Part shown: positions 10,176 to 61,670 of the stretch, one piece after another
Numbering within the stretch: the first letter of the stretch is position 1
Layout: every line of letters begins with the position of its first letter
IMG/VR virus record: IMGVR_UViG_3300011977_000424
Direction: 5' to 3' (one strand)
Length of the DNA: 64,000 nt
DNA from: an uncultured virus (IMG/VR IMGVR_UViG_3300011977_000424)
Taxonomy: Duplodnaviria; Heunggongvirae; Uroviricota; Caudoviricetes
Program-made: the position numbers and the translations under genes
Notes under the pieces: model-generated
The model's input: only the letters and a program-made list of their open reading frames with translations
Told to the model about the DNA's origin: nothing
Database searches by the model: none

Positions 10176-10383
10176 CTATTTCCCTCCCACCTCGCCAACG
10201 GAAGAACATCCGGGAGCGTGGTATGCTGAATACATTGCCGACTTCATGCGGCGCACTGCACCAAAGGTATATTTCTCGCCGTTCTTTCCTCTGAGTGCTT
10301 CGACGGTTCCTTTATTCATAAGGCCTCAACACGATTGGTAGTTTATCACATCAACCTCAACAAGCATAACTAATTTTGTACAC

Positions 10384-10887
10384 ATGAGTAAACTTAGATT
10401 ATTTGATTTGTTCCGGTCGTGGCTGCATGATTACTTCAAGCATCCACTGGAGAATATACGGCAAGCGCGGCCTATCATCCCTGGGCGGCTCTATTCCAAC
10501 TTCGGAAACATCTGCAAGGCGGTGCCCATGACTGATGAGGAACTTGCCTTTGTGGCTGCTCACAAGTTTGCGCTGCCCTTGGGTGTCTTGACTGCTGTTC
10601 CTGGTGCTTCTATCCAGTTCATGGAGGATTTATACAGTGAGCTGGGGGATGAGAAAGAAGAGCTTGATACACAGACTGGTGATCTCAACGAGCTCTACAA
10701 GAAACAGAAGGAGTTGCAGCGCACTCAGTTGCGTATCTCATTCGACGATGGCATACCGTCTCGTTGCAACCTCTGTGACTTCCACAAGAATGGCATACCC
10801 TGTCCTCTCTACAATGTACTGAAGGATGGCTCCACCGTCTGCGACACTCACAAGTATATCATCATCAAGCATAACAATAGCGTATGA
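10384..10887 (+). CDS. Hypothetical protein with C-terminal Cys cluster
   Basis: CNLCDF...CP...C motif. Confidence 0.6.
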   Translation: MSKLRLFDLFRSWLHDYFKHPLENIRQARPIIPGRLYSNFGNICKAVPMTDEELAFVAAHKFALPLGVLTAVPGASIQFMEDLYSELGDEKEELDTQTGDLNELYKKQKELQRTQLRISFDDGIPSRCNLCDFHKNGIPCPLYNVLKDGSTVCDTHKYIIIKHNNSV

Positions 10888-21502: not shown

Positions 21503-21748
21503 ACCTATTCTATTTGTAGCCTTCCTTTTTTGATGCCCAAGTTCTTCGGCCGCTAACTTCTCTGTAGCCCTACCAAACTCTACATCCCGATTTATGTTTC
21601 CGCTTTCCAAACACCTTGTGATGGTGCTTGCTGCTGCCGAGGCTCATTCTCCCATGCTCAGCGTTGGGATATACATATCCCGGTGTCGTACGCATGTTAA
21701 TTTCTTCTGGCTACCACATCAAACGGTAAACCTTATTTCTTTCAGATT

Positions 21749-46300: not shown

Positions 46301-49300
46301 GCTGATATTTATAGAGATCCAAACTTTGCTCGGTAGCATAGTAGAACACTTCTACTTTGTCATCGTTCTTGTCTCTTGCAAGCCAGTTGCCCTGACGGGC
46401 GCCACGGCCATTCTCCTGTGTCACGTTGGCTGGGTTCCAACTCATATCTACATGGTGGATAGCAACCATGCGCTGTTGAATATTCAGTCCTGTACCGGCG
46501 TTCTTAGCACCTCCAATGAGAATACGAACGGTACCGTCGTTCATCTTCTTACAAAGCTCAGCGCGTTTCTTGTCTGTATTAGCCTTGTGAATATCGAAAA
46601 TCTCTTCCTTGGGGATTCCGTAATCAGTGGAGAGACGATTGATGAAGTCTGTGTATACGTCATATTCCTTCTTACCGTCGGGCACACCAAGGTCACAGAA
46701 AATAACTTGTGTGCCTTTGTCAGCACTGAATTTGTCGTATATTTTCTTTACGTTGTCACACACGTAGGTAATCTTACCTCCGTCGCCGTCGTCCATATCG
46801 GGCTTCACCAACTTAACGTTGATGGCTGCCTTAGTACTGATATTGGTTGCCAACAATGCCCACGGTTGATCCTGTCCACTCGCTGTTTTGTCGGGGATAC
46901 CAAAATATCCTCCATGATGGTTCCTGACCATGTTCAACACTTCACGGGTAATCTCTTTAAGTGAATCACTGGCTGGTACCGTGACGACGTGGACATTCAT
47001 CTTCGGCTTGGGCAACTGTAAGTTGAGGTCGTTGCGCACATCGGCTACCTCTGTATAGAGCTTCGCAAGCTCTGCCAGGTTTTCAAAGTTCCTAAACCGT
47101 GCCTTGTCTACCAATTCGCCTTTGTAGTCGAACTCGCCTTCGGTAGAACACTCTGCAAAGTTGGCGGCCCAGGCATCAAAGGTATTGAAGCCAAGCTCCT
47201 TCATCTTGTTGGGGCGTATATACTGGAACAGACTGTACAACTCCACAAGTGAGTTACTGATGGTGGTACCTGAAGCAAGTATCAATCCTTGGTCGCCTTG
47301 GTGAAGCTGCTGCAGATAGCGTGCTCCACAAAGCAAGGCCATAGAGCGTGCACTTCCTTCGGGGTTGCTAAGTCCGGCGATCCTGTTATGGGTTGTGACG
47401 TATGCAAGGTTCTTGAATTGCTGGCACTCGTCCACAAACAGATAGTCCACGCCTAAGTCCTCAAAGGTAAACTCGCGGTCTACCTTCCTATCTAATAGAC
47501 GCTGGACCTTTACCTTTAGTCGTTCTCTTCGCTTCTCCAGTGCCTTCTGTTGGCGCTTGGTGAGTTGAGAGTTGCCGGACGCCTGCTTTAGTATTTCTAT
47601 CGCTGCTTCAAGCTGGTCGATCTGTTCTTGCAAAATACCGGTCTCTATTTCTTCCTTGTGGGGCAACATACCATATTGCTCATGGCTCAGGATAACGCAA
47701 TCCCAGTCGTTCACGGCAATGCGTGAAAGCATCTGCTTGCGGTTCTCCTTCTTGAAGTCGTTGTCCATAGGAGCAAGCACACGCGCAGTAGGGAAGGCTT
47801 CGTGAAACTCCTTCACCATCTGTGGCACGGTAGCCTTCAATGCAATAATCATTGGCTTTTTGGCAATGCCCATACGGCGCATTTCCATAATAGCACTGTG
47901 CATAACCAACGTCTTGCCGGCGCCGACAATATGATCAATAATGCCTCCGCGATTGTTAATGAGCATCCAAACGGCATCCTTCTGATGAGGGCGCAAGGTC
48001 TTACCCTGCAAGCCTGGTATCTGGAGGTGGCTTCCGTCAAACTTCGGAATAACGGTAGTATTAAACTTCTCGTTATAAATCTTGGTTAGGCGGTCGGAAA
48101 TATCGTGGTGCGCACTGATAAAGTCCTCGAATTTCTCGCGGATCTGGTCTATCTTATCGTTGGCACTGTTGGTCTCGTCCTCGTCGGTATATTCGTGGCC
48201 GTCTCTGTCTTTAAGTCTGACAGTTACCTTATTGTTCGTTAATGCGGCCTCTATGAGTTTTTGATTATTGCAGTGCTCGGTCTTCCACTCGTTGGCTTTG
48301 CCGGATGTCTCATAGCCTTCAATATAGACGTTAAACACGTCGGCTTCTGGACTATAAACAATACCGGTGTTGGCATTATAGCGGTCTACGCCTAACAGGT
48401 CTTGAATGAAGGCGGTATAGATGTCGTCGGGTACCCAACGGGCTCCCATGTGGATGGCAATACCAATAAATGGGATGTCGGCTGGCTGCACGGCTTTCAG
48501 AGCCTCAACATTCCTGTCAAAGCGGTGATCCATCTTCGCGGCGGCCTCAGCTTCTTTCAGCTTGGCTTTAACATTGCCACTAAGATATAAGTCGCGCATT
48601 TGGTAGCCTCCACCGGGTTCCTCAAACACAACGCCGTCTACCTTGTCTATCCAGTCCGGGCCTAACTTAGATTCCATGTACTCGGGGCGTATCTCTCCAT
48701 ACTCGGCGAGTGACAACGTAATCATTTCAGAAGGCGTGCTGGCGCTGTCAAGGTCAATCTTGCTCTTGATGGTACTCTTCTCGAAGATGTCGCTAAGGCC
48801 GGCAAACTTGCCGTCGTTCATCTTCTCCAGGGATAGGATGCTATAACCGTCGATGTCCTTCTTGATAAAGTCGTTCTTCTTATCATTCAGACGGCCATAG
48901 TGGGCTACAAAGTTGTTGTAGGCCTGTTTGAGCTTGGCACGCAACAGTTTCACCTGTGCTTCTTCTGCTCCTCCTATCTCCTCGGCAATGAGCTGCTTCA
49001 TGGCGGTGCGCACGGGGATCATCAGGCGTATCTTGGCGGCCTGGCTCGCAAGTTTAGGATCGGCAAGGAACTGGAAGGTTCCTGATTTGTCGCCTTTGGG
49101 CTTGGATAGGTAGCCAAACTTGCCGTTCTGCTCCACAATGTTACCGTCGCCTTGGTAGTCACCATTGCCTACATACTCTTCGCGCACTGCGTCGTAAACC
49201 TGACGTGAGCTCTTGGTGGTATCGTAAAGCTTACCCTTGCGGCTGGCTGGTACCACGTATTTGTCGATGAGGTCTGTGAGCTTCTGGGCTATCTCGGCGG

Positions 49301-52300
49301 TGCTCAGGTCTGAGGTGAGGCCGTAAGCGTCGCCTCTGTACTGGTTACCAAGTTTGATGTTGCCGATAACCATTTCAGGATGCTTTCCGTAATAGCCATT
49401 GTAGTGCACAACGGCGCTTTCCCACTTCTGCTGTATCTCTTCTTCATAGTCGCTCAGGAATGGAGTTTCTATGTCAGATAGGTACTGCTCGGTGCGTGTG
49501 GCTGTCTTATCCTCTCCGTCTTTATACTTGCGGAAGAAGATAATATCAGTAACAGGATTGGTACCGGCTCCTTTGAAGGCGTTATCCGGCAAACGCACGG
49601 CTCCAAGTATCTCACAGTTGTCTGCGATATACTTGCGCACAAGCTGGTTGCCCTTCGTGTCCATGATGGCATTGCTGGTCATTATATAACCAATGCCTCC
49701 GGGCTTCAAAAGGCTGATGTTCTTAACCGTGAAATAGTTGTGGATGCGGCTCTGAGCAAACTTCTTGACGGGTTCACTGGTGCCCTTCCATGACGGATCG
49801 TTGACGGCAATATCGCCAAATGGGATATTACTGCCTACTACGCTCATACTATTGTCAGGGAATCCGGCATCCTGGAAACCGATAATCCTAATGTTGGCAT
49901 CGGGATAGAGCAACTTCACAATATTACCGGTGAGCCAATCAAGTTCGGTACCGTAGATCTGGGTACGCTGCTGCATGCTCTTAGGCATGGTTCCTTCAAG
50001 CACACCACTACCGATACTGCCGTCAAGGAAACTGCCTCCTCCCTTGTAGCCTGCACGGTCAAGGAAGTGGTTAATGCCTCGGGCTACATCAACAGGGGTG
50101 TAATAGCTCGTCAGGGCGGCATGTTGGATGTCGTCAAGTAGTTTGTGCTCGTTGTGAGGGTCTATTTCCTCGAGTATGTCGGCAAGCTTAGCTACATCTG
50201 CTGATCCACGACGGCGCATGTAGTCGTAATCATACCACATACTGCCGTCGGTGCCTCCCCATCCTCTGAACTTGCCAAGCTCGGCACGCTCCTCGGGGGT
50301 GGCTGGTCTGCCCTGGCGCAAACAGTCTCTCAGTATCTCAAGGGCGCGTATGTTAGTGCGCAAGCGCTGGCCGGCGTTCATGTTGTCGATGTCGGTGGCA
50401 TCGTCGGGATAGAGATAGTTGCGCGTGTTAAGCGGCTTCTCTTTCTCGCTTGCGGTCTTGGTACTGTGATCGTCCGGCCTTATATCGTCCTTTACTTCTG
50501 GCTTGGGCTTTGAGGCTGGTTTGCTTGCTGGCGTCTTGCTGCCAGTCGGCGCTGGCCGTCCTCCACGATCTGGTTTATCCAGTCCGCCATTGACGGGTCG
50601 CTGTCCTCCTCGTCCTCCGTCTGCATGTACTGTTCCTGCATCTGGGCTCTCAGTATCTCCGAAATCTGATCTGTCGAATAAGTCCCCTGAACTCGTAGGT
50701 CGTGTTCCTGGTCGTCGTACGCTTCCTGAGTGTCCTCCAGGCTTGCTTCCAGTTGTCCCTGCTGAAGAAGCTGCTCCAGTTCCTCCGGCCTGAACTCCTG
50801 CATCAGATCCAGTCTTTGCTGTGCCCAATACTCCCGGCTTTGGATTAGCTGGTTTCTCAGCTCCTCCACCTGTTGCTGTTGTTTCTTGTCCATGGTTATC
50901 TGTCTTTACTTCATGTTCTGTTGGCAAAGATACGGAATTTTCCGGCTTCTTGGTCTCAGGAAGGGTAATATCTTCCCAATCGGCCACTTCATACATCACT
51001 GGAGCCAGGCCGGTATCAAGCACGGGCTGGCCGGTTGTCTCAAAGTCGGTAACGGTGGCCGGCTCGCCTTTGTATATCACCTTATCACCGATATTCAGTT
51101 TCGGGTGCTCGGCATGGGCGGCGTTCTCACGTGCAAGTAGCTCCTCGGCGGCATCTATCTGGCCCTTCACCTTTTCAAGCTCTATTTCAAAATGACGGTG
51201 CTTGTTCAGTGTATGGCTGCCATTCATGCTGTTTGTTAGCTGGTCTCTGAGATCTCTTAATCTCGTCAGCTCTTGTTTGAGAACATCGGCGGTATCAGTA
51301 GCATGGTCAGATGCATATCTAACTGCGGCTTTGGCGTTCACATCCTTCAAGGCGCTAAAGAACTTTGATGAGCTCAGTGTGAGAAGGTTCTTCTCGCTTA
51401 GATAATCTTCATCGGTAGGCTTTAATGGGCTGGCGGCTTCATCTTGCTTGGCTGCCTTCCTCTTCTCGTAGTCGGCAATAAGCTTGTTAGCCTCATCAAC
51501 GGCTTTCTTTACAAGCTGGGTAAACTTCTCATCACCTACGGCGCTCTGTGCCTCAGCTATCCAACGTTTCAGATAGTCGCGCTGTTCATCGTTCTGCATG
51601 GGTTGTTTCCCACTGCGGATGGCATCAACCATATCACGCACAATGAAGTTGCGCATGAGCTCGAAATCTTCAATACGTTTGAGCACATGTTTGCTGCCTT
51701 GTGTCAATGCAAGGTCTATCTTGGCCTGCTCAAGTATCTTGTTGATGCGTGCAAGGTCGGGGCGTCCGCACTCGTTCCATACGAAATAGAACTTATCGCG
51801 CTCGGGGTCACCCTTCATTCCTCTCAATACGGCATATTCGTAGGTAGGCTCGTCGATATAGTGAAGATGGTCGCCGGCATCGCTAAGGATCTCATAACCT
51901 TTCTTTCCGTCGTGTGACTTCTGCATCTTCACTTGGTTCTTACCCTCGCGTGCCCACTGGTCGATGTATTCAGCAACAGTCTTATAACCTTCTCCCCAGT
52001 CCTGCTTCTCATTCAGGAGCATCTTAGCCATTTCGCGCTTGCGTGGGGTAAGGGTATTAAGATACTGCTCCACTGCATCGGCGGTGCGGTTATCATTGCC
52101 TCCTTCCTGTGGTGCTGGATCCTCGGCGGCTGGTTGCACGGTGTCGGTAGTCTTAATGCCTAACTGCTCGTCGGCTTTCGGGTTCTGGGGCTCTATCATG
52201 TCAAACAAGGATGGCTCCTGAACTGTTGCCTTCTTTGATTTGGCTGCCTTGGTGGGCTTAGACTTTGGCGCTGGTGTCTCGGGAACTTCATAGCCAGTAC

Positions 52301-55300
52301 TCCTCGCTAAACGCTTCATATCCTCTAAGAAGGTGGAAAGCGGTGTATCAACGGCTGTGAAATGGTTACTCTCGCTTCGTCCTTCTCCCTGCAGGCGGTA
52401 CATGATACGGCCTAACACAAGGTCGTCAAAGTCGTTGCGGTCAAGATTCAAATTGATGTAGATATACTTGCCGGTGCCCGGAAGGTCTATCTTCATATAG
52501 ATGTCACCTCCTATCGGGGCAAGGTTAGCATTGGCAAGGTTGCGTTTGTTGGTCTTTTGGCCAAGGGCGGCATAAATCTCCTTTGCCAATCGGTTGGCGT
52601 CCTTCAACGCTAACTTTTCTGCCGACTTCATATAACCATAACTCTCATGCTCGGGGCTATTGGGGTCATGCTTGTAGAAGCCTAACAGGGCAAGTTGCTC
52701 ATCTACCTTCTCTAACTGCTCATCAATCTTCTTCTGGGCGTCGTTTACTTCATCCTCAGTTGTTGCTGTTTCTGCAACACTTTCTGCTTGGCTTGCAATA
52801 GCCTCTGCTTGGCTTGCAATAGCCTCTGTATTTGCTGGTTCGTTTCCTGTTTCATCGTTATTCTGTTTACCTAATACTGATTCTGCAAACTTCTTGGCAT
52901 CGGCCTCTCCGGATTCAAAAACAAATCCTGCCTTGCCAAAGCTGGAGTAATAGCCTCCAAAACTCTTTACCTGTTTCTTAAGATCAAGGAACTTGTCTCT
53001 GTCGAAACGCTCGGTGAAGTTCACTACCCAAATATCAATGCCTTTCTTCTTGTGCCAACGCTGAGTGATGGAGTAGCCGGGGTTATCCTCGGCCTTGTCT
53101 ATCATTTCTCCTCCGTCGGTACTGCCAATGGTGGGTGACGGGATGGGCTCGGGTGCCTGCGCCTCCACGGTGGGGGCTTCGGGCTCTTCTGGCTTGTTCG
53201 CTGCCTTGCCACTGTTCTCAGGCTTTGAAGCCTGAGCTACTTCATTGCGGCGGTTCACCTCTGCCAACAGACTGTCTGCATCCGTAACCTTGATTGGCTC
53301 GGCGGCTGTTTTCTCCTCCTTGGTTGGATCAAACTTCTCAACGTCGAAGTTGTCTACCTCGTCGTGGCTCGACATTTCCTTGCGATACTCCTTCATATCG
53401 TCCATCTGTCGTGCTGCATCGTAGAAAGCTTTGAGATATGGGCGTATCTTATCGCCACAGTCCTCAATCATTCTGCGTGCATACTCGGCAAACTTCCTTG
53501 CGCCGGCCTCAATATGGTACATGGCCATCTGACTACCAATCATGAACAGTTCAGGATCAATACCTGAGTTGAGGTTGTTCAACTTATCGCGCATGCGCTT
53601 CTTCAACTGCTCATAAGCATCATCGGTGATGATCTTATTATTGGTCTTGCGCTTTTTGCTGCCTCCGGCCTTGGATTGCTCCTGCTTCTTCTCGGCGTCT
53701 TTCTTGGCCTTCTGTTGCTTTTGCTTTTCCTGATTGGCTTGCTCTGCCTGCTTCTGCTCTTCTGGGCGCACATGGTCCATATAGTCTTGAAGGGCATCAC
53801 GCTCACCCATAGCTTTCAAGAGTGTGGAGAATAAATCTACACTCTTGTTGCCTCGGAATGGTCCGGTCTGCTCGCCTTTCTCCACTCGTGGGGTAAGCTC
53901 GTCAATAGCTTGGTCGCGGTCACGGATAGCGGCATTGATGAGGCCGGGCTTCATCAGCTTGCCTTGCTTCTTTAAGTTCGCGGCCATAATGTTATATGCC
54001 TGTTTGGTGATAGCATCGGTGGTACCGGCAATATCAGCCTCAGCAACATTCATGGATGTTACAGGGAGATACTTCGGACCTGAGACGACATTATAAGTGC
54101 CGTCCTCGTTCACGCTATCTATCTTAGCCATCTGGCCGCGATACATAACAAGTTCACCCTTTTTATACTTGCTCTCAGGCTTCTCTTCTGGTGCTGACTT
54201 AGGCTTGGGAATACCACCTATAACAAGGTGCTGCTGCACGTAGGCTTTATCCTTTGCAAGCTTGTAATCGGCAAAGGGCTTGGTCTTGCGGTGGCTGCTC
54301 TCTACCCAGGCCTTGAAGTCGTCCTTGCTCACCTCGGTAACGGTGCCTACCTTCCATCCCTTTTCATACTGTGACTTGTAAGCTTCAATGGCGGCTTCCT
54401 TGGATGGGAAACCGTACATTACCTTGTGCTCATCAAAACTGCCGTCGCTCTGGTTCACCTGGTCTACAACATACACATTTCCGGTCGTAGGATCGTCACT
54501 GAGATAGACGTCGATATGGTCGCCGTCTACACCTTCGGTGCCTTTGATGTAACCATAGTCATAGTTCATCTTTACGCTCCATTCCTTGCCGTCCTTGCCA
54601 TGGCCGGTGCGCGTGGATCCATTCGGATTTTCAATAGTAATGTCGTAACCGTCAATCTTCACATGGCCCTTCTTATAGTTGCCGGCTTCCTTTTGCGCGT
54701 CGGTCGGGTGGGTGTCCACCTCCTTGCGCGCTGCTGCAATATCGCCACTGCTGGCACTCTTTTCACGAGTGTCATTGCCAGGTGCATTTTTCTGCTCATT
54801 TCTTTGCATGGTAGCGGAATTTTCACTACCTTTGCCTTCAGAAGAAGCGTTATTCTCTTGCGTAGGAAGGAGGTCCGGCACATCATTTTGATGTTCAGCT
54901 AAGCGCCTGTCAGAGCTGTTGGAGAGTAACGCTTGCTTTGTGTATTTACGTCTGTACTCCGTAAGCTTCTGCTTGATCTTGTTCTCGTTATTATAGTGGC
55001 TGCTTACTGAAACTTCAAGGCCTTCTTGTGATACTGTAACTGATGTAAAATACTTGGTGGTGGTGCCGTCAGACTTCTTGAACGTCTTTACGAATACATA
55101 GGAATAGGGGCGCTCGGTTATCGTGCCTTCCTTAGCTTCGCTTGGCTCTATGAAAATAACATCTGGGTCGGTAAGCGTAAGAGAAACCATACCAAACTCC
55201 TTTGTCCTTTTCTTATCCACAAGCTTATTGTACTGATGTTCTCCCATCTTCACCTTACCGATAGGTGTGCCTATCTGGTTGTTAAAGCCAAATGTAGACA

Positions 55301-58300
55301 TCCAATTTTCAGGTGTAAGGCTTATCTCAGGGTCTACTACGGCGCCCTGCGACATGGCCTTAATTATTGAGTCTGCTTTATCTACAGAGAGGGGGGCTTC
55401 ACTCTCCGGCTCCATCACGGCAATATCATCGCCGCTGGTGCCTACTTCTCCTGATTTTGCTTCTGACTGTACAGGTACGCCTCCGTTAGCATGGCCATTG
55501 CCAGTTGGTACTGGCGCTTGCGCTGGCTTACGTTCCGGTTCTGCAGTATGCGTACCTTCAACGCCGGGCTGAGAAGGTTCTTTTCTTGGCACAGGCGTTT
55601 CGCCTTGGCCATTTCCTGTTTTAGCTGCTGGTCGTTGAGGCTCTTGATCCATTCGCCTGCTGCCTGCAACTGTGGGTTGTTGCTGATTTTCTCCATTTTC
55701 TATTTCGTTTAACAGTTCTGCCTGTTCGGGCAACATCTGGTTAATAGCTTCCTCATAGGCTTGACGCTCTTCCTCACGTTTGGCAATATCATCGGCAATA
55801 AGTCCGTCGATGTAAGCTTCTACTTCAGGACTGGGTTCATCGGCGCTCATGGCATCAAGATAGTCTTGATACTCCTGGATCTTCGCCTGACGCTCGGCTG
55901 CTTCCTCCTCCATGTATTGTCTCTCCTGCTCTTCCTGAGCACGAAGGAACTCTTCGGCATCGGCAATGCGGTTGCGGACTATCATGTACGTGATATCCGA
56001 TGGTTTGCGTGCTGAGCTGAGCAAGTCAAGCAAGGCGTTGCGGATCTCCTGGGTGCCTACGTTCTCAAAGCCAGGAGTGCTAAGGGCGGATTCCCACATT
56101 TCGTGAACAATGGCATCTACACTCTTCCCATGTCCCTTGGGCGCAAGGAAATAGTTAATAGTGTTGCTGTCATATCCATGGCCAATGCCACGACGGGTGC
56201 CAAGCTCTTGCTGTAAACCGGTGTACTTAACGCCTCCTCGCTCTATGCCTTCCCAGTTGATGGTATGGGGGCCAAGGTGGCTTGCCACAAATTCTTCAAG
56301 GGTCTGTGGCTCTTCTGCGTCAAGCAAGAATCCGGCCTCGGTACCGTCGTACACCTCGTGGGCCTTCTTCCAAAGGTCTTGCACGTTCTTTGCACCGGAA
56401 AGGGCGGCTGCTCGCTGCTCTTCGGGTGGTAGCTTCTTAATCTCTTCGGCGTTGCGCTGGGCATAGATGTTGGTAAGGGCGCCTAATGTGTCCTTCAACT
56501 GTTTCTGTGTCTGGAGAAGTGTTTTCTCCTGCTGCTCCAGTGCGGCCATTCTGTTGGCGGCCTCTTGGATCTCTACGTCGCTGAGCTCGGCGGCTCCATC
56601 CTCGTAGTCACCGATAAGGCGGCGCACGTCGGCCATTTCGCTGCCTACTCCGTTACTCCACTGCTTTTGCAGCTCCATGCGCTTATCGGTAATGAAACGC
56701 TCAGCGTCACCTTGGGTGGGGAAGTTAGCGAGTAAGCTCTCGCCACTCAACTCTTTTGGCTTCTCAGGTGCCAACACTTGCGGATTGGCCTTGGCTACCT
56801 CTGCGCGTGCATGCTCAACGGCCTTGCCTACTTTGTTGGCTCGCTCCTGGGCAAACTGCGCACGCTGCTCACCGGTCATAACGCCTTTGCGGATCTCTCC
56901 CCACTTGCGCTGCCGTTGCAGATTGTCGGAAAGCTCTTCTTGCAATCGCTTGATGAGTGCGTCTTTCTGCGCTTTCTGCTCTGGAGTGTACATATCGCCG
57001 TTGGTCTCCATCCATTGGGTGTGGCGGTCCAGGTCGAAACGGATGCGGCGCTCATGCTCCTTCAACTGGTCCTTCTCGGCCTGTATATTCTTCAGCACTC
57101 CGTCGGTCTTGCCGTCGGGGGCGGTCGTTCTCAGATACTCGGCGGCTGCGCTTGCGTCGGTTCCCTTAGCTGAATAGTCGGGGTGGCCTTCATTGTAGCC
57201 AACAATACCGGTAGTGAAACGATCCTTCTGCTCATTGGCCTTGTTCTGCTGGGCTTCCTGCTGGAGCTGGGCTTCTATCTTGGCATAGTCGGCCTCAGCT
57301 ACATAACCGGAGGCTTCCAGTGGGCTCAGGGCAAAACGGCTGCCGTCCTCTCCCTCGAAGATAGTGTTGCCGTTTGGATCCTGGCCGGCTACCTTCACAT
57401 GAAGGTCTTTGCCGGCCACTCTCAGGTCGGTTTCCATACCTGGCATTAGTCCTACGCTGGCTCTCAGGTTCCTATACTGATCGTCCAACTGCATGGTGAA
57501 GGTGTCCACATCGGCTTTCAATGCGTCGTTCAACGGCACGGCCTCACCAAGCTGCTTGATACGTCTCACTGGTACCTGTTGTGTCTGGCCGTCCTCATCA
57601 ACAACAATAATACCTCCGTACTGGTTGGTGACGTCACCACTCTTCACGTAGGCTTCGGTACCGTCGTCAAGCAATACGGGAATAATAGTGCCCTGGTCGC
57701 TGACTACGGTCTGCAATTGCTCTCGCCGTTCCTGCTCATAGTCGGCGGTCTGCTGATAGATGCTGTCATCCTGTCCTGCCTGTGCTTCCTGCACATCAAG
57801 ATAAGCCTCAACGGCTTCTCTTTGGTAGGGCGTGAGGTTCTGACCGTCCAGGAACTGTTGCACGGCATCATCGTCACCGGCCTCAACAAGTGCGTTAAGG
57901 TCGTGAACAAACTTCGCGTTCTTTGGCTCTGACATTGGGAAAAGCATGTCCATACGGTGACGGGCAAGTCTATTCTCATATTCCAGTTGTGGCAATACGC
58001 TCCTGTCCTCGGCGGCTGATGCTCCGTGGTTATAGGCTGCCTCTCTACGCTGCTGGGTAGGTGTCAATGGTGCTTCGCCTTCTCCGGCGCCTGTGCCTCC
58101 CTGTGGTGCTTCTGGGCCTTGTCCTGCCGGCTGTTGTCCTGCTGGTCCTACTGGCTTTTCAGGAGAAACACCACCGTCCCCACCGGTGCCTCCGCTATCG
58201 ACTGGGGGCAATCCGCGTGGGGCGTCGGGTGGTGTCGGGACGTTGGGAGATTCGTCTATATCTTGTGGCGCCTGGTCGGCTGGCTGTTCAGGTTCCTGTG

Positions 58301-61300
58301 ACTGTTGTGCTCCTGGGCCTGCCTGCTGGCGCTCTTCTGTTGCATGGTCGTAAATGGTTGGTGGCGCGTTCTGAATGTCGGCGCGCAATGCTTCCTGATA
58401 AGCCTTAACAATACGTTGTTCTGCTGGCGTGCGGAAATGCCCGTCGCCGGCATCTACTACTTGCTCTCCTTCCTGCAAAAGCGATGTGGCCTCACGCTTT
58501 GTGTGGCCCTTCATAGCTGCTTGAAGTGCACCTTTGCTCAGGCCCATGGATGCTTCAAAGTTCTCTGCATACATTGTGGCTGCCTCGGTGCCTTGCTGGA
58601 GATCATTGTAAACCTGGCGGTAGGAGTTGAAAAGATTAGCCTCATCTTCGGTGAGCTCTTCACCTCGGTTGCGGCGCTCGGCTACGTCTGAGAACTTCTT
58701 GGCGTTCTGGAACAGATAGACGGCTTTCTTCTCTTCATCGGTGAGCTCTTCACCTCGCTGTTGCTTGGAAACAACTTGCTCGTACTGTCGGCGAAGGTCG
58801 TTCTGGAGATAGATATTGTTATACATCCCCTCCAGGGCTCCGGTAGTGTTCACCTCTTTCTGCCAACGTAGTCTGTCGTTGTCTTTGTCTGCATCTGCGG
58901 CGCTATCGTAGTGGCGGCGGTCTATAACTCCTCCATCTTGGTTGTATGTTGTCAGGGTGGCTCCGTCGCCGTATTCGTCGGGTGTAACCTCGCTGTTGAT
59001 AACAGGTGAGAAGGCATCTGGGCGCTTGCCCTCGATAACATTCATCATCTTGGCCTTGGTAGTCTCTGGAACATCTGGATCACGAAGTAACTGCATATAC
59101 TCGGGGGTGTGCTGGCGCATAACCTCGTAGTCTGCATCTGCCTTGCTCCTTACTCCTGGCTGCTCTGCCTCTTGTGGGCCTCGGCTGTCCTGGCCCATCT
59201 TCAAGAAGGCATCGTAAAGACCTGCATATCCCTTTTCATTCAACACATGAAGGTCGTCGTCGTTGAATTGAAACTTTCGGTTGAACTCTTGCTGATTACG
59301 GAAGTTGAGATACTTGGTAGCCTTGTGGGGCAAGCCTAACAGGTTCAAAGAAACATAGCTCTCTAAGAAACTTTCTGCGGCATCCTTGCCGGTGGGTGTG
59401 AAGGAAGGATCGGAGGCCATACGCTCCAGGAGTGAAGATGTGCCCATAATACCGGCGTCGGCGGCTGTGCCTAATTGACCTCCAAGCACATTAGCCCACA
59501 CACCTTTGCCTCTGGTAAGGAACTGGCCCACGGTGTTTCCCTGCATGAGTGCACCCATGGCGGCGTTTTTAGCGGTGTTCACAACGGTATGGCCTACTAT
59601 CTTGCCTACTGATGTCTGGTAGGTGGTGCCGTCGCCTTGTGGCTGGCCGTTACGGTAAGCCTCGTTTACAGGAGTGGCAATTACAGACTGTCCACCAAAG
59701 GCAATAGCATTACTGATGGCGCTCTTCTTGATTGTGAAGCCTAATTGCTTTTCAAGAATAACCTTTGCGGCACGCTCGGCGGCGGCTTTCTCCATACCAT
59801 GTGATGTGAGGTCGGCGGCAAGCTTTTTAACGGCTCCTGCGGCTGCCTTCTCGCTTACCTTAGCACCAACACCACCTGGAATAAGATAACTCCACATGTC
59901 GGCGCCAAAGGTCACGGCGCCACTGGCTACTTTGTCCCAGAAGCCTGCATGCTTCTGTTCATAGTCGCTGTTGGCCATATCCTCCAACCAATTCTGATAA
60001 TTGGTCTGTGTGAGCTTGCGGCCTATCTGTCCGATAATGGAGTTACCTAAGCCGGTCTTTAGAATGTACTCCAGACTGCTCTTTGGCATCTGACGGGCCA
60101 TTTCTGTCTGCATGTAGCGGTTAGTAATGGCGTCGCCTAACTGCTTCTCAACATAGGTGCGGTAATAGTCGCCTAAGTCCATTCCTAATTTGTCGGCGTT
60201 GGCCTGCATCTGCTTGACAAACTCGGGGTTCTGTACGATCTTCTTCACCTGAGTAGCGAGATAGTCAAGCACCTTCTTTGGATCCTTGGCCTCGTTTGCT
60301 TGGCGTGTAGCCTCACCAACCATACCCATACGCATACCTCCAGGCATACCGGCAAAGTTGTCACTGTTGATTTCCTTCTCAAATGCTTGCTTGGCCAACT
60401 GGTCAAACTTGCTAATGGCATCATCAATGGGTTTCTGTGCCAGGTCGCCTATCATGTCGGCGGCTACGCGGCTATTCTTATCACGCTGGAGAAACTCTTG
60501 CTTGGTAAACATGCCACTGGTGAGCATACCGGCGGTGCCCTCGTCATAGCCTTTCTGCTGAAGTAGCTTTTGTGTGTATGCTTTCACAAGGTCATAGTAA
60601 CCTTGGCCACTATAACGGTTCTGGGCGCTGCGCTTATCCTCATCAGTCCAATTAGCGTTTGCCGTAACAAAGTTGGGAAGGAAGTCCGGACGATAATAGA
60701 TCTCCTCAATAGCTTTCTTCACCTCCTCAGTGGTGGCGCCTTCTGGGATATTGCCTACTATCTTGGTGGCAATGTCGGCGGCACTCTGGCGCATATACAT
60801 GCGGCGTGCCTCATCGTATAGGACCTTCTTTGTCTTAGGAGGAAGGTTCGTTAGGTCTTTATCGGCATTAACAAGATCATTAACCTTATGAATGTCCGAA
60901 GCTCCGTTGGTTAACTGCACATACTGATACATCTTGTTCAGCAAATCTTCGGTCTTGTATTGATCTCTATTCTCGACAAAGCCTTTTGAGGATTTGCCTT
61001 CTGGCAATTTTGCAGTAATAACTGCTTCTGGCTCCTGTTCCAGTTGTGGAACATTAGCCATTTGTGCCTGTTGCTGTGCGGATGGGGCCTGCTGTTGCTG
61101 CTCCTGAGCTCCGGCGAAAGGTTGGTTAGCCTGCTGAACGGCTGGCGTTGCCGGCTGGCCGTTGGCTGCTCTATCCGGGTCGGTTGCCTGCGAAATAAGG
61201 CCTGATGCGTATGGGATTTTTACATCCTGAGACTTCACCACAGGCTTAAATTGGTACTGCGACTGATTAATAGCCTGTTGCAGCAAACTGCCATTGAGCA

Positions 61301-61670
61301 CCGGATTTTGTTGCGCTGCTTTCTGCTGCTCTGCGCGCTGTCTCTGTTGTTCCTGGGCTGTGGTCGTCGGTGCCTGCTGCCTCTGTTGCTGAGGTGCGGC
61401 GGCTTGGGCCTGCTGTGCCGGCTTGGCGTTTGGATCCTTAGTGTTCACGTAGATAGGTTTGTCAGTCTCTACAAACTGATAGCCGGCATCGTAGGCTGAG
61501 CTAAGATCATCCATCTTAACATCACGCTCCGTGCCTTCTTTGTCTCTCATGCGGATGGTAGCATCTGGCATTTCACTGACAAACATATCTACTTTGTCGT
61601 TGAACTTATCGGCTGCAACAGTGCGCTGCTTGCCGTTCACATTCAACATGTATCTCTTGGTGTTTGGCAT
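40359..61670 (-). CDS. 7103-aa polyvalent DarB-like protein: PBECR2-like nuclease, inorganic pyrophosphatase-like domain, N6-adenine MTase, SNF2 helicase, second SAM MTase, zincin-like metallopeptidase, helical C-terminus
   Basis: TPIGKVKMGE...TLTDPDVIF (~54940-55380); YGYIKGTEGVDGDHIDV...FDEHKVM (~54270-54720); FLDGSIGSG/NIPFG (~49500-50400); HIVGAGKT/VDECQ/QENGRGARQGN (~46250-48000); VLDASSGLG/ISNAVLNVI (~44750-45400); VFHEKLGHEGL (~44150-44700). Confidence 0.88.
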   Translation of the reverse strand: MPNTKRYMLNVNGKQRTVAADKFNDKVDMFVSEMPDATIRMRDKEGTERDVKMDDLSSAYDAGYQFVETDKPIYVNTKDPNAKPAQQAQAAAPQQQRQQAPTTTAQEQQRQRAEQQKAAQQNPVLNGSLLQQAINQSQYQFKPVVKSQDVKIPYASGLISQATDPDRAANGQPATPAVQQANQPFAGAQEQQQQAPSAQQQAQMANVPQLEQEPEAVITAKLPEGKSSKGFVENRDQYKTEDLLNKMYQYVQLTNGASDIHKVNDLVNADKDLTNLPPKTKKVLYDEARRMYMRQSAADIATKIVGNIPEGATTEEVKKAIEEIYYRPDFLPNFVTANANWTDEDKRSAQNRYSGQGYYDLVKAYTQKLLQQKGYDEGTAGMLTSGMFTKQEFLQRDKNSRVAADMIGDLAQKPIDDAISKFDQLAKQAFEKEINSDNFAGMPGGMRMGMVGEATRQANEAKDPKKVLDYLATQVKKIVQNPEFVKQMQANADKLGMDLGDYYRTYVEKQLGDAITNRYMQTEMARQMPKSSLEYILKTGLGNSIIGQIGRKLTQTNYQNWLEDMANSDYEQKHAGFWDKVASGAVTFGADMWSYLIPGGVGAKVSEKAAAGAVKKLAADLTSHGMEKAAAERAAKVILEKQLGFTIKKSAISNAIAFGGQSVIATPVNEAYRNGQPQGDGTTYQTSVGKIVGHTVVNTAKNAAMGALMQGNTVGQFLTRGKGVWANVLGGQLGTAADAGIMGTSSLLERMASDPSFTPTGKDAAESFLESYVSLNLLGLPHKATKYLNFRNQQEFNRKFQFNDDDLHVLNEKGYAGLYDAFLKMGQDSRGPQEAEQPGVRSKADADYEVMRQHTPEYMQLLRDPDVPETTKAKMMNVIEGKRPDAFSPVINSEVTPDEYGDGATLTTYNQDGGVIDRRHYDSAADADKDNDRLRWQKEVNTTGALEGMYNNIYLQNDLRRQYEQVVSKQQRGEELTDEEKKAVYLFQNAKKFSDVAERRNRGEELTEDEANLFNSYRQVYNDLQQGTEAATMYAENFEASMGLSKGALQAAMKGHTKREATSLLQEGEQVVDAGDGHFRTPAEQRIVKAYQEALRADIQNAPPTIYDHATEERQQAGPGAQQSQEPEQPADQAPQDIDESPNVPTPPDAPRGLPPVDSGGTGGDGGVSPEKPVGPAGQQPAGQGPEAPQGGTGAGEGEAPLTPTQQRREAAYNHGASAAEDRSVLPQLEYENRLARHRMDMLFPMSEPKNAKFVHDLNALVEAGDDDAVQQFLDGQNLTPYQREAVEAYLDVQEAQAGQDDSIYQQTADYEQERREQLQTVVSDQGTIIPVLLDDGTEAYVKSGDVTNQYGGIIVVDEDGQTQQVPVRRIKQLGEAVPLNDALKADVDTFTMQLDDQYRNLRASVGLMPGMETDLRVAGKDLHVKVAGQDPNGNTIFEGEDGSRFALSPLEASGYVAEADYAKIEAQLQQEAQQNKANEQKDRFTTGIVGYNEGHPDYSAKGTDASAAAEYLRTTAPDGKTDGVLKNIQAEKDQLKEHERRIRFDLDRHTQWMETNGDMYTPEQKAQKDALIKRLQEELSDNLQRQRKWGEIRKGVMTGEQRAQFAQERANKVGKAVEHARAEVAKANPQVLAPEKPKELSGESLLANFPTQGDAERFITDKRMELQKQWSNGVGSEMADVRRLIGDYEDGAAELSDVEIQEAANRMAALEQQEKTLLQTQKQLKDTLGALTNIYAQRNAEEIKKLPPEEQRAAALSGAKNVQDLWKKAHEVYDGTEAGFLLDAEEPQTLEEFVASHLGPHTINWEGIERGGVKYTGLQQELGTRRGIGHGYDSNTINYFLAPKGHGKSVDAIVHEMWESALSTPGFENVGTQEIRNALLDLLSSARKPSDITYMIVRNRIADAEEFLRAQEEQERQYMEEEAAERQAKIQEYQDYLDAMSADEPSPEVEAYIDGLIADDIAKREEERQAYEEAINQMLPEQAELLNEIENGENQQQPTVAGSRRMDQEPQRPAAKTGNGQGETPVPRKEPSQPGVEGTHTAEPERKPAQAPVPTGNGHANGGVPVQSEAKSGEVGTSGDDIAVMEPESEAPLSVDKADSIIKAMSQGAVVDPEISLTPENWMSTFGFNNQIGTPIGKVKMGEHQYNKLVDKKRTKEFGMVSLTLTDPDVIFIEPSEAKEGTITERPYSYVFVKTFKKSDGTTTKYFTSVTVSQEGLEVSVSSHYNNENKIKQKLTEYRRKYTKQALLSNSSDRRLAEHQNDVPDLLPTQENNASSEGKGSENSATMQRNEQKNAPGNDTREKSASSGDIAAARKEVDTHPTDAQKEAGNYKKGHVKIDGYDITIENPNGSTRTGHGKDGKEWSVKMNYDYGYIKGTEGVDGDHIDVYLSDDPTTGNVYVVDQVNQSDGSFDEHKVMYGFPSKEAAIEAYKSQYEKGWKVGTVTEVSKDDFKAWVESSHRKTKPFADYKLAKDKAYVQQHLVIGGIPKPKSAPEEKPESKYKKGELVMYRGQMAKIDSVNEDGTYNVVSGPKYLPVTSMNVAEADIAGTTDAITKQAYNIMAANLKKQGKLMKPGLINAAIRDRDQAIDELTPRVEKGEQTGPFRGNKSVDLFSTLLKAMGERDALQDYMDHVRPEEQKQAEQANQEKQKQQKAKKDAEKKQEQSKAGGSKKRKTNNKIITDDAYEQLKKRMRDKLNNLNSGIDPELFMIGSQMAMYHIEAGARKFAEYARRMIEDCGDKIRPYLKAFYDAARQMDDMKEYRKEMSSHDEVDNFDVEKFDPTKEEKTAAEPIKVTDADSLLAEVNRRNEVAQASKPENSGKAANKPEEPEAPTVEAQAPEPIPSPTIGSTDGGEMIDKAEDNPGYSITQRWHKKKGIDIWVVNFTERFDRDKFLDLKKQVKSFGGYYSSFGKAGFVFESGEADAKKFAESVLGKQNNDETGNEPANTEAIASQAEAIASQAESVAETATTEDEVNDAQKKIDEQLEKVDEQLALLGFYKHDPNSPEHESYGYMKSAEKLALKDANRLAKEIYAALGQKTNKRNLANANLAPIGGDIYMKIDLPGTGKYIYINLNLDRNDFDDLVLGRIMYRLQGEGRSESNHFTAVDTPLSTFLEDMKRLARSTGYEVPETPAPKSKPTKAAKSKKATVQEPSLFDMIEPQNPKADEQLGIKTTDTVQPAAEDPAPQEGGNDNRTADAVEQYLNTLTPRKREMAKMLLNEKQDWGEGYKTVAEYIDQWAREGKNQVKMQKSHDGKKGYEILSDAGDHLHYIDEPTYEYAVLRGMKGDPERDKFYFVWNECGRPDLARINKILEQAKIDLALTQGSKHVLKRIEDFELMRNFIVRDMVDAIRSGKQPMQNDEQRDYLKRWIAEAQSAVGDEKFTQLVKKAVDEANKLIADYEKRKAAKQDEAASPLKPTDEDYLSEKNLLTLSSSKFFSALKDVNAKAAVRYASDHATDTADVLKQELTRLRDLRDQLTNSMNGSHTLNKHRHFEIELEKVKGQIDAAEELLARENAAHAEHPKLNIGDKVIYKGEPATVTDFETTGQPVLDTGLAPVMYEVADWEDITLPETKKPENSVSLPTEHEVKTDNHGQETTATGGGAEKPANPKPGVLGTAKTGSDAGVQAGGTGAASSAGTTGSKPGGHSGSVRRPGTRPTSSGDLFDRSDFGDTESPDAGTVHADGGRGGQRPVNGGLDKPDRGGRPAPTGSKTPASKPASKPKPEVKDDIRPDDHSTKTASEKEKPLNTRNYLYPDDATDIDNMNAGQRLRTNIRALEILRDCLRQGRPATPEERAELGKFRGWGGTDGSMWYDYDYMRRRGSADVAKLADILEEIDPHNEHKLLDDIQHAALTSYYTPVDVARGINHFLDRAGYKGGGSFLDGSIGSGVLEGTMPKSMQQRTQIYGTELDWLTGNIVKLLYPDANIRIIGFQDAGFPDNSMSVVGSNIPFGDIAVNDPSWKGTSEPVKKFAQSRIHNYFTVKNISLLKPGGIGYIMTSNAIMDTKGNQLVRKYIADNCEILGAVRLPDNAFKGAGTNPVTDIIFFRKYKDGEDKTATRTEQYLSDIETPFLSDYEEEIQQKWESAVVHYNGYYGKHPEMVIGNIKLGNQYRGDAYGLTSDLSTAEIAQKLTDLIDKYVVPASRKGKLYDTTKSSRQVYDAVREEYVGNGDYQGDGNIVEQNGKFGYLSKPKGDKSGTFQFLADPKLASQAAKIRLMIPVRTAMKQLIAEEIGGAEEAQVKLLRAKLKQAYNNFVAHYGRLNDKKNDFIKKDIDGYSILSLEKMNDGKFAGLSDIFEKSTIKSKIDLDSASTPSEMITLSLAEYGEIRPEYMESKLGPDWIDKVDGVVFEEPGGGYQMRDLYLSGNVKAKLKEAEAAAKMDHRFDRNVEALKAVQPADIPFIGIAIHMGARWVPDDIYTAFIQDLLGVDRYNANTGIVYSPEADVFNVYIEGYETSGKANEWKTEHCNNQKLIEAALTNNKVTVRLKDRDGHEYTDEDETNSANDKIDQIREKFEDFISAHHDISDRLTKIYNEKFNTTVIPKFDGSHLQIPGLQGKTLRPHQKDAVWMLINNRGGIIDHIVGAGKTLVMHSAIMEMRRMGIAKKPMIIALKATVPQMVKEFHEAFPTARVLAPMDNDFKKENRKQMLSRIAVNDWDCVILSHEQYGMLPHKEEIETGILQEQIDQLEAAIEILKQASGNSQLTKRQQKALEKRRERLKVKVQRLLDRKVDREFTFEDLGVDYLFVDECQQFKNLAYVTTHNRIAGLSNPEGSARSMALLCGARYLQQLHQGDQGLILASGTTISNSLVELYSLFQYIRPNKMKELGFNTFDAWAANFAECSTEGEFDYKGELVDKARFRNFENLAELAKLYTEVADVRNDLNLQLPKPKMNVHVVTVPASDSLKEITREVLNMVRNHHGGYFGIPDKTASGQDQPWALLATNISTKAAINVKLVKPDMDDGDGGKITYVCDNVKKIYDKFSADKGTQVIFCDLGVPDGKKEYDVYTDFINRLSTDYGIPKEEIFDIHKANTDKKRAELCKKMNDGTVRILIGGAKNAGTGLNIQQRMVAIHHVDMSWNPANVTQENGRGARQGNWLARDKNDDKVEVFYYATEQSLDLYKYQLVSTKQRMIDAFKVSASNGSEARSFDEGAAGDDSDFDPASVVALLSGNPIILDKSKMDKKVDKLIKAKRQYMVEHEQRVNQFYRDKRSLSNFEALKRGNARDQEIITDAGFKPDKEGKYPSTVTVTSDKHPEGQKFTKAGEAGKYIHSLLKKGEMVKLSGFGIDAEVGTPTTDLKISTQPVRKVILRAPSKIKYEGVLSDDDTAAGMTYRRMLEKVINNGKAYQQAIDEYKHKLEGGDPGEPNFPREAELAEALEQKKKIDAEYKKLTADNKDKKPEGDEGNKNSTNDISKRSSTALFDEFGQRWIEDQETSTGQHSTQIRSTEKTYIKIGNWMQREQERTGKTLTVLDASSGLGYGTMTLRGQSENGQSAGFNFTVDDVEPYPAEHREAGAPTFTDYAAIDKDYDVVISNAVLNVIPDDWRANVLSDMVRHMKTGGKLIINVRDAKEIEKQKQKIELDSPSEILVTDKKGKIRAYQKGFTQSELENWVQESLGNGFSVEAAGKVIPELKGARAVVVTKLTDQEGDKQYRLQVEAAQETAEQLGGMPVHFDNMSTISNESLRREIQGGDGTKGWYDWKDGSVHVYTPAMQGVDDVKRTVFHEKLGHEGLRALLGSDDAVKQFGTFIFESAGKELRDRILDKAEELGGVDLTDNNPYSEAAQEVFSDIAEEGPATPEEFSLWRKVKHYLIRFLNKIGLRVRGLLNDHDLRYYVLRTGKALKNWKGMTDAEKEEAATRDDRFSKRTKGKPRKRKDEDMAHYFQRLREWEKWHMAEEASKAANDPMPKEEDYTEKYNKNYQEDLAQWKKDNGIAEDEEGAGTFPKREEDETPQDYAIRVADYETKSDLWQTAPDYFKYQKDAADAFRNDYNEWKTRYGIQEQESVDEMLYSGTGPEEPQTEEEFQSEAEIESRMDRDMADAVGVDVTPQGARRQAKLAVIERRKNLESASAEDAIFIHDLMKRIDTVAKRKGMKPEELREQIIYMIEAPLVENELKADVDDMTNALNISRTFADSHFYIEGEGLRDAKDELKKFVDLYLQEGKQPSSRLAKQQLSEAASAVAKKLNKFYENNPKAQGILDRSDVIRMAQTFANAYLADVELGYQQADGIDPDIKPIIDEIHDWYDNFFHLLEDAGLRGGAGYIENGYINHVWDKDKSDPSAWEEYVDNFQRTKSKNMKHREILTYKDGIKIGLVPKFTDVGKLIAYYSRSNNEAIANRKFLDDLSFITISETNKDGEVTRTLPLMDSNKPSAFNEERYAMYHIPGVGDVWVLKDIQRRFASIFGTMRTKDIPDWLSKVGKGCDLGASTMKKIQLSFSGFHALALTEVAGAQMRPDRAAKALVKYIILDSIKKRTIPAYAHPEDYKLAASHLVQLGATQDYAAADVNMITEKLRNYVKKLAASDSAGIKAAGVAGTPLATMLDWMNKGMDKVLWNYLHDGLKIACFKLFAEQVAKRVEKEGLSAEQHDQLLDEAGQYVNDSFGGQYWELLDVTPAQLKWMRRLLLSPDWLVSTQRHFFANFGFGSLYSEGGFLNYLRYNRDNLKRAFGFSIPRNEFRRFRSKSAKQCYILGVLVFYNIMWNALNAFFRAQDEEKEKEKAEKMRLTNPDYKSPYELAYPDGMKWYDYTMYGNSLGQQTHLFVGRYKDGTEWYARWGKQFREFPEMFIGRHGLEFPTPMIERMMGKSNPIIGTGIDVFGTLGVHGFSNTYGDDMTDIQNKYGKQIAALAVTARHFMPFSVPTQSDKEFKMLDIVMPSQKGFTRYKTVDFFKTFILSGDMGGVLLTYRAATMNGIDAKKCLEAAITTLKAEQKNEMGDGIVDLQTAFEKYDKAETLSEKKYLRNKINKYLAAENYQAFTRDEAMSQVNDFLNGSYNDVEQESDKYLMQTTAADIRDDYKLKALKKQAKKYVDQVKEAQTAGDDATAARLGQRYGAWFAINDILNKATSAIGKAKKQLGQGHDAEVMKQIREIRQQAQRAVDEIETPK
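50492..50893 (-). CDS. Nested +1-frame gene inside the polyvalent ORF (TnpV-like by recall)
   Basis: 133-aa helical ORF; TATCTTTGC -7 element at 50924-50932; A at -3, -6, -12 and -13 of the ATG; the host frame here is a G/P/S/T-rich linker. Confidence 0.6.
   Translation of the reverse strand: MDKKQQQQVEELRNQLIQSREYWAQQRLDLMQEFRPEELEQLLQQGQLEASLEDTQEAYDDQEHDLRVQGTYSTDQISEILRAQMQEQYMQTEDEEDSDPSMADWINQIVEDGQRRLAARRQQANQPQSPSQK
52783..52828 (-). repeat. 21-bp tandem duplication (EAIASQA x2)
   Basis: TCTGCTTGGCTTGCAATAGCC twice on the + strand. Confidence 0.9.
54803..54834 (+). promoter_or_regulatory. Full Bacteroidetes promoter antisense to the polyvalent gene
   Basis: TTTG (54803-54806)-N20-TACCTTTG (54827-54834). 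Confidence 0.65.
54842..54940 (+). ncRNA. Putative structured antisense small RNA
   Basis: 13-bp closing stem 54845-54857/54922-54934 with three internal hairpins, starting just after the promoter. Confidence 0.45.
55442..55696 (-). CDS. Nested +1-frame gene (84 aa) just upstream of the PBECR domain
   Basis: Amphipathic helical ORF; A-rich start context TTAAACGAAATAGAAA-ATG; the host frame is a low-complexity linker. Confidence 0.5.
   Translation of the reverse strand: MEKISNNPQLQAAGEWIKSLNDQQLKQEMAKAKRLCQEKNLLSPALKVRILQNRNVSQRKRQYQLAMAMLTEAYLYSQKQNQEK

Follow-up and report, generated by a model that had tools for sequence, protein, structure and literature searches.

The window analyzed here, a 64,000-nucleotide (nt) stretch of the uncultured Caudoviricetes virus IMGVR_UViG_3300011977_000424, has the gene content of a temperate phage, with genes for an integrase, a major capsid protein, a portal protein, and a reverse transcriptase. 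Adjoining its portal and capsid genes is a single open reading frame (ORF) whose 7,103-amino-acid product can be regarded as a polyvalent protein as PMC5512222 uses that term, because it combines PBECR2, InPase, N6-methylase, and SNF2 domains. In the linker behind the PBECR2 domain, the opposite strand carries a promoter and, directly after it, a predicted RNA that folds into a four-way junction (Table 1). Comparative sequence evidence indicates that this structured RNA, as yet undescribed, is real and that it is a member of a family of domain-specific antisense cassettes, some of whose RNA units are found as orphans in arrays.

Table 1. Coordinates of the antisense cassette, the gene that contains it, and two related arrays (window positions unless a locus is named)
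Feature	Position	Strand	Remarks
Polyvalent protein gene, 7,103-aa ORF	40359..61670	-	Pfam domains PBECR2, InPase, N6-methylase, SNF2 helicase
PBECR2, phage BECR-fold predicted RNase domain	54927..55391	-	Pfam PF18810
-33 element TTTG	54803..54806	+	Antisense to the polyprotein gene; promoter of the Bacteroidota housekeeping-sigma type
-7 element (TAnnTTTG), TACCTTTG	54827..54834	+	20-nt spacer from -33
Predicted small RNA, type A, ~95-105 nt	54840..54945	+	Ends inferred from promoter position and a U-rich run past the closing stem
P1 closing stem	54845-54858 with 54921-54934	+	Includes U-G pairs; 12/12 counted pairs two-sided in 59 sequences; 83.5% of cells paired
P2	54859..54880	+	3-bp covarying stem, GUA/G internal loop, near-invariant GGA/UCC stem, ANNAGG loop
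P3, variable-length arm	54880..54894	+	4/4 counted pairs covary
P4 stem with 13-nt loop AAG-N6-UCAG	54896..54918	+	2/6 pairs covary, 2 one-sided via G-U
Non-coding array	L323, about 8870-11310	+	Numerous stem-rich units, some with short complementary motifs on either side; near mobilization-type genes
Non-coding array	L324, about 9600-11630	-	Likewise stem-rich and near mobilization-type genes; relaxase PF03432 ~3 kb away

The promoter follows the consensus of the Bacteroides sigma-ABfr factor (PMC7366714), and it is missed by a sigma-70 scan. The full pattern occurs 4 times in the window, versus 0.62 times expected, and none of 100 shuffled sequences reached 4. Read on the coding strand, the -7 element encodes a recurrent linker peptide, x-K-x-T/N/S. 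The RNA motif is present in 54 genome records, nearly all titled Bacteroidales or Bacteroidia, consistent with the promoter type.

The PBECR2 domain has a single Pfam match, to PF18810 (29.9 bits against a cut-off of 27.1; E value of 7e-7), and its top Atlas matches are PBECR2 clusters at 0.94. A structure model of the domain (predicted local distance difference test score of 92.3) has as its closest folds CdiA-CT (5i4q; Z 4.9, root mean square deviation [rmsd] of 4.2, 85 residues aligned) and colicin D (Z 4.0, rmsd of 3.2, 80 residues aligned), followed by a Salmonella toxin-antitoxin toxin and RelE-like toxins, all at Z below 5. The BECR fold shared by RNases such as colicins D and E5, CdiA-CT, and RelE is a helix with a meander sheet after it. 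Foldseek with the same model gave no match at E ≤ 0.001, and a sequence search of the PDB gave two chance-level matches. Residues Q53, K56, R62, E93, R94, E126, and S130 are invariant in 52 sequences, and nuclease activity of the modeled domain is plausible.

The first-pass annotation of this DNA, made from the letters of the sequence, had called a consensus promoter on the + strand, an RNA consisting of a closing stem and three arms, and a PBECR nuclease domain. Both promoter elements were found in place (54803-54834), as were the closing stem and all three arms (54845-54934; the GGA-AGGAGG-TCC arm is the part of P2 at 54865-54876), and the domain call agrees with a Pfam match just over the cut-off. 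The three-arm layout was right as far as it went, but it overlooked the 3-bp stem 54859-61/54878-80, which covariation shows. The RNA had also been called cloverleaf-like, which holds for its topology but not as a statement of tRNA identity: ARAGORN predicts 0 tRNA or tmRNA genes, there is no tRNA match in Rfam at E ≤ 10, and the third arm varies in length and sequence. Rfam searches returned 3 chance-level matches over 54500-55600, none of them convincing, and 0 matches at E ≤ 1 over 12 loci of other types and orphans. As for a small antitoxin peptide on the + strand, only frames of 3 to 25 codons begin inside the RNA.

Judged from the window sequence alone, the fold is unexceptional and moderately stable. 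Its z score is -1.7 over 158 nt and -2.8 for the 89-nt core, compared to -3.0 for the opposite strand; 2 of 47 sampled windows of the polyprotein gene fold better than the core; and the minimum-energy fold is a rod (-32.6 kcal/mol), with the cloverleaf (-29.4 kcal/mol) 3.2 kcal/mol higher. The single sequence is thus no proof of an RNA, because its fold is moderate, the opposite strand is comparable, and the rod is preferred. The covariance model R1, which includes the window sequence, finds one copy in the window, at 54840-54939, with 101.8 bits.

Covariation and selection in the RNA

Loci were gathered in two ways, by protein and by RNA motif. Alignment A3 is derived from 113 motif matches, of which 58 were left after dereplication at 94%, giving 59 sequences with the window. 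In A3, 21 of 28 pairs are two-sided, with 352 such cells versus 135 after shuffling, and 90.0% of cells are paired, compared to 71.2% after shuffling and 36 to 49% when slid; the shuffle control ignores relatedness, yet several pairs show at least three pair types. RNAalifold recovers the identical helices unaided, and the cloverleaf, or four-way junction, is established through this covariation across homologues. The outer pairs of P2 all covary (3/3, 98.3% paired), and its inner three pairs are invariant in the 59 sequences; the protein-found copies include a single two-sided change there. Corrected mutual information peaks at alignment pair 44-58, in P3. In the P4 loop, the two ends and one internal C are conserved. 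Since the core motifs were fixed by the search pattern, their invariance in A3 is partly a selection effect. The top covarying column pairs are all in nested helices, with none crossing, and the loops are too invariant to reveal a pseudoknot.

The second route gave the same picture. The covariance model, applied to 61 of the 160 long protein-found loci, supplied 35 distinct copies, in which 91.1% of cells are paired and 21 pairs are two-sided; this alignment was fitted to a model that shares sequences with it. In the 61 loci, which are oriented by their protein, 43 of 43 model matches are antisense to the polyprotein. In the 59 sequences of A3, G-U combinations outnumber A-C combinations by 126 to 31 on the antisense (promoter) strand. 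The coding sequence also bears a trace of the RNA: at identical residues, synonymous differences were found at 305 of 508 positions (60%) in the domain and 13 of 151 (9%) in the RNA, in a comparison of 7 related homologues that are not independent of each other. These comparisons of homologues show that the predicted RNA is selected as an RNA.

Domain families, RNA types, and orphan copies

For PBECR2, 62 distinct ends (representing 82 viral loci and the window) were examined: in 60, an antisense TAnnTTTG box follows the last core strand at a distance of 148 to 319 nt, and the other 2 have a one-base variant. Among all the domain ends examined, no PBECR-type domain without a promoter-like site was seen. 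A strict rule, requiring the promoter 5 to 110 codons past the domain end, was applied to polyproteins at loci chosen through PBECR2 (145 ORFs with a minimum of 1,000 amino acids, 65 after dereplication). The promoter followed PBECR2 in 58/65 cases, PBECR1 in 17/18, LPD13 in 9/9, LPD3 in 6/11, and PBECR3 in 3/6 (the seeding of the last four profiles is considered below), and all 16 strict misses retain a -7-like site at a similar distance. Behind other domains of these proteins it was absent (InPase, 0/35; N6-methylase, 0/12; SNF2, 0/12; helicase-C, 0/12; methyltransferase, 0/2), against a background of 270/17,852 (1.5%), and the sense-strand count was 0 for every domain. In the reverse direction, 97 of 100 strong in-frame sites were scanned, and 88 lie behind one of the five families (56 PBECR2, 13 PBECR1, 8 LPD13, 6 LPD3, and 5 PBECR3). 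LPD13 weakly cross-matches PBECR2, and we infer that LPD3 is a nuclease as well. The counts show the domain, the antisense promoter, and the predicted structured RNA as one evolutionary unit.

The peptide tails of 168 domain matches sort into several types. The type C consensus fold (10 sequences) has 7/28 two-sided pairs and scores -34.7 antisense versus -24.1 sense, and the LPD13-type fold (9 sequences) has 10/22 two-sided pairs and scores -21.2 antisense versus -5.5 sense. Mapped on a tree of 153 domains, RNA type changes 31 times, compared to 88 times after shuffling, and is clustered; this was a quick and weak tree of 134 columns, and some of the labels taken from peptide patterns are wrong. 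The C-terminal helix of the domain changes together with the RNA type. Within the resolution of this tree, each domain lineage is shown to have its own RNA type.

Four short PBECR2 proteins (P0006, P0013, P0014, and P0016), some of them from short contigs, end a few residues from the promoter-derived peptide motif and are possibly stand-alone versions of the cassette.

The motif search yielded 70 distinct RNA copies, 51 behind a PBECR2 match and 19 without an adjacent PBECR2; in 61 of the 70, a -7 box lies within 150 nt on a fixed side and in a fixed orientation. By inspection, 6 of the 19 orphans sit in a stack after some other domain or unit (LPD13 and LPD3 among them), 2 are in frame without a domain, 9 lie in non-coding DNA, and 2 are remnants or cut by a contig end. 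A host gene for a PD-(D/E)XK (AddB-like) protein (L110:2-2326, +) carries PBECR2, RNA, and promoter in frame, and its relative L118:2-2338 (+) carries the RNA and promoter alone at the corresponding site. Nine copies outside an open PBECR2 frame keep 21 to 23 of 23 pairs while differing at 3 to 21 sites from the nearest comparison copy; the copy in L126 differs at 18 of 76 sites and keeps 21 of 23 pairs.

In two Prevotella records, L126 and L152, a type A unit is located inside stem-rich non-coding arrays of ~2.4 and ~2.0 kb. Both of the long arrays in Table 1 close with a terminator-like hairpin, and their shared blocks differ in content and order. They contain overlapping ORFs, none of which looked gene-like on inspection by eye, without a Pfam scan. 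A second array unit, also present in L121, corresponds to the antisense unit with promoter behind the LPD3 domain of phage L327. L121 itself has three orphan units at about 1200-1800: one of type A, one of LPD3 type, and another that has a promoter of its own. Two of the three also occur in the long arrays. A blastn comparison of the arrays with the collected loci recovered the type A unit and the one that L121 also has, plus a weak match to an LPD3 tail, and nothing else. An nhmmer search with 358 promoter-downstream segments gave weak matches to the L216 tail (E value of 2e-5), the L225 tail (4e-4), and a second L121 unit (6e-6); this search missed the L327 unit, and most array units had no match. 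A pattern for another recurring array unit was discarded after its 2 viral matches proved to be chance occurrences inside a baseplate-like gene.

PBECR2 was found in one of five genomes tested (G004) and not in G002, G003, G005, or G006, which include the two array genomes and are incomplete assemblies. In one family sample, the RNA model matched 2 of 151 genomes, including a new match behind PBECR2, too few for an orphan rate. RNA units are shown by these copies to occur without the domain and to collect in arrays. As far as the collected loci go, RNA without the domain is common and a domain without a promoter-like site was never seen, which is the asymmetry of antidote and toxin.

Some orphans have neighbors of their own. 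In a Barnesiella record (L159, about 1300-1700), orphans of types B and D stand in tandem in an intergenic region near a gene that looks McrB-like by eye. In L115 (about 1460-2070, +) and L120 (RNA at 1465-1567, -), the orphan promoter and its RNA are followed directly, on their own strand, by unrelated genes, named by eye as a HAD-like phosphatase and an XRE-like small protein; the cassette may drive or regulate such downstream genes too.

Two further features of the window lie away from the cassette. An ORF of 133 codons (50492-50893, -) is nested in another frame of the polyprotein gene on the same strand, directly preceded by an internal TAnnTTTG promoter box (50924-50932, -); it has no Pfam match, and its Atlas leads are weak (the best, at 0.89, is unnamed, and TnpV is named for 11% of members at 0.78). 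At 20201-21610 (-), the reverse transcriptase gene (RVT_1) adjoins a gene for a 2,286-amino-acid protein with a weak CotH match, a pair that we presume, from its resemblance, could be a diversity-generating retroelement.

Proposed mechanism, alternatives, and known systems

The arrangement suggests an RNA-based antidote system without proving one. We consider it somewhat more probable than its opposite that this is a toxin-antidote cassette whose RNA antidote binds the predicted RNase domain. Host RNA polymerase would read the antisense promoter once phage DNA enters the cell, and throughout lysogeny, and the product would be a four-way-junction RNA of ~100 nt. This RNA would bind and block the PBECR2 domain, probably by mimicking a substrate while being cleaved slowly or not at all, thereby protecting the cell that makes the polyprotein and also a lysogen that receives polyprotein from an incoming virion. 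An immunity gene placed downstream is impossible for a domain located mid-polyprotein, which would be why the antidote is encoded on the opposite strand of the linker. Retaining extra units would give phages, chromosomes, and mobile elements immunity to nucleases not their own. A more far-reaching proposal, to which we give slightly less than an even chance, is that Bacteroidales phages run a polymorphic toxin system with RNA immunity, in which each injected BECR-type nuclease (PBECR1, PBECR2, PBECR3, LPD13, and LPD3) has an aptamer-like antidote written antisense into the linker after it and the orphan arrays represent an acquired library of RNA immunity against virion-delivered RNases. A cell that destroyed the incoming DNA would then lose the antidote as well.

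We favor a shape-based antidote acting on the protein over antisense pairing, a cofactor or effector, and a non-transcribed element, because the stems covary and the loops are fixed, also where there is no reading frame. The first-pass annotation had envisaged an RNA that silences or decoys the RNase and is carried as a cassette. Of its two modes of action, the decoy (binding) fits the data better and mRNA silencing less well. The conserved promoter and stem that it predicted behind PBECR2 homologues are present, with covariation and an antisense-strand fold, and domain, promoter, and RNA do travel together, even in frame into the host gene of L110; the orphans and arrays extend the cassette idea by an asymmetry that had not been foreseen. 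In four sequencing runs, L128, a mouse-gut homologue, has flat multi-kilobase coverage that gives no strand, ends, or level, is possibly DNA, and weighs neither for nor against expression.

Several observations weigh against the antidote reading. Most PBECR families have a His in their N-terminal helix, together with a Ser or Thr in the last strand, with Arg in place of His in one family (PMC5512222), and the N-terminal helix of the 52 sequences has no conserved His; Q53, K56, and R62 are its invariant residues. With all fold matches under Z 5, the domain may bind RNA without cutting it, and PBECR domains might spare host tRNA and rRNA according to PMC5512222. RNA types swap between close sister domains in three well-supported pairs, which is unexpected for a strict lock-and-key relationship unless specificity is set by the C-terminal helix, which moves together with the RNA. 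The profiles of PBECR1, PBECR3, LPD13, and LPD3 were seeded with promoter-preceded examples, and the unseeded strict counts are 10/11 for PBECR1, 3/3 for LPD13, 2/4 for PBECR3, and 0/5 for LPD3. Pooled tails of PBECR1, LPD3, and types G, H, and F gave little or no consensus fold; the pooling was automatic and mixed types, with usable folds just for type C and LPD13. Finally, neither long array starts with a canonical promoter.

Part of this evidence would suit an RNA that is a cofactor, guide, or product of the domain, which would bind or process it into a ribonucleoprotein directed against a host or rival-phage target, or an RNA that is itself an exclusion or anti-defense effector with the domain as its maturase or antidote. 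The missing catalytic His and the swaps of RNA type between sister domains would be less surprising here, a hypervariable loop segment of 5 to 6 nt lies within an invariant frame, and arrays of diverse units could be effector libraries. We nevertheless think this unlikely: a guide would need to be longer than the variable segment, an antidote or maturase domain would be expected often without the RNA and none such was seen, and PBECR2 was found in just the one genome noted above and in neither of the incompletely assembled array genomes.

Silencing of the type I kind seems less probable still. Here the RNA would pair with its own polyprotein mRNA, or convergent transcription would interfere, keeping leaky expression of the toxic domain down, and orphans would silence the mRNA of incoming phages. 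Perfect complementarity to the mRNA exists by construction, the RNA sits at the 3' end of the domain, and a strong consensus promoter specific to predicted RNase domains would be in keeping with this. Pairing in cis, however, needs no conserved sequence, yet the junction and loop bases are near-invariant and the stems covary; orphan stems drift by compensated changes, so that shape is kept and complementarity lost (L126); and an antisense RNA cannot neutralize a ready-made virion protein, the delivery of which is suggested by gene context and PMC5512222. Least probable is an element that is not transcribed, be it a single-stranded DNA structure, a recombination site for shuffling polyprotein domains, or a conserved peptide tail beside a promoter that arose by chance: the units come, go, and change order as cassettes do, and spurious antisense starts are common in Bacteroides (PMC7366714), but synonymous suppression and the 9 copies in non-coding DNA exclude peptide conservation, promoter side and orientation are fixed in 61/70 copies, the G-U bias points to the promoter strand, and the promoter never follows InPase, methylase, or helicase domains.

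If the antidote reading is true, it explains why a cell survives making a polyprotein with nuclease domains inside it, a question that PMC5512222 left unanswered, and it adds RNA in place of protein as immunity to polymorphic toxins. There would be natural RNA inhibitors of BECR-fold nucleases inside coding sequence, beyond the reach of intergenic RNA screens, and the 2-kb non-coding arrays on Prevotella mobile DNA would be a possible new anti-phage layer. PBECR, LPD13, and LPD3 domains would become testable, as the RNA should permit their cloning and its shape hints at substrates. Whatever the mechanism, the family of RNAs, the arrays, and the antisense promoters tied to particular domains are real, and the searches run matched them to nothing.

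In the literature searched, which left out most subscription papers, we found no description of an antisense RNA cassette behind PBECR domains. The word "antisense" is absent from the main texts of PMC5512222, which mentions neither an RNA partner nor an immunity factor in its section on PBECR, and of a preprint on BECR classification (10.64898/2026.08.28.747851). The two core motifs were not found in six supplementary files of PMC8040213, and sequence archives outside this search may bear on novelty. The same study lists HMP2_1418, a 33-nt Capnocytophaga candidate near PBECR1, PBECR3, and LPD3 genes, which may be a related element.

Among known systems, the cassette invites comparison with several. 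In type I toxin-antitoxin systems, a convergent small RNA overlaps the 3' part of the toxin-coding region, and the RNA described here is likewise complementary to the mRNA of its domain. There is, however, no short membrane peptide or stand-alone toxin, since the domain is internal to the 7,103-amino-acid ORF, and the multi-arm fold covaries and has invariant loops, in orphan copies too. The acquired interbacterial defense (AID/rAID) arrays of Bacteroidales (10.1101/471110) are also variable orphan protective units on mobile DNA of gut Bacteroidales, but they encode immunity proteins against type VI secretion system effectors, whereas the units here are ~100-nt RNAs that match phage nuclease tails and would be protective.

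MuF and prophage polymorphic toxins (PMC5576092; Bxa/Bsi/BAH, PMC11699363) resemble the system in placing variable toxin domains on a protein associated with the head of temperate phages, with a cognate protector after every such domain; here, the protector would be an opposite-strand RNA instead of a protein encoded downstream, and the domain lies within a polyprotein. Type III toxin-antitoxin systems (ToxIN, CptIN, and TenpIN) share the pairing of a structured non-coding RNA with a (here predicted) endoribonuclease and the covariation of RNA and protein lineages, and phages can borrow copies of their antitoxin RNA (PMC5086642). In these systems, the toxin is preceded on its own strand by the antitoxin, a tandem array of short pseudoknot repeats, with a terminator between the two in a single operon (PMC5086642). 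The RNA in the window, in contrast, is a single-unit four-way junction, antisense and downstream, inside coding sequence and with its own promoter, and its partner is a BECR-type domain of a virion polyprotein with no match to the ToxN, CptN, or TenpN families. By analogy, the best reading is that the cassette works like a type III antitoxin or like polymorphic-toxin immunity and is a member of neither.

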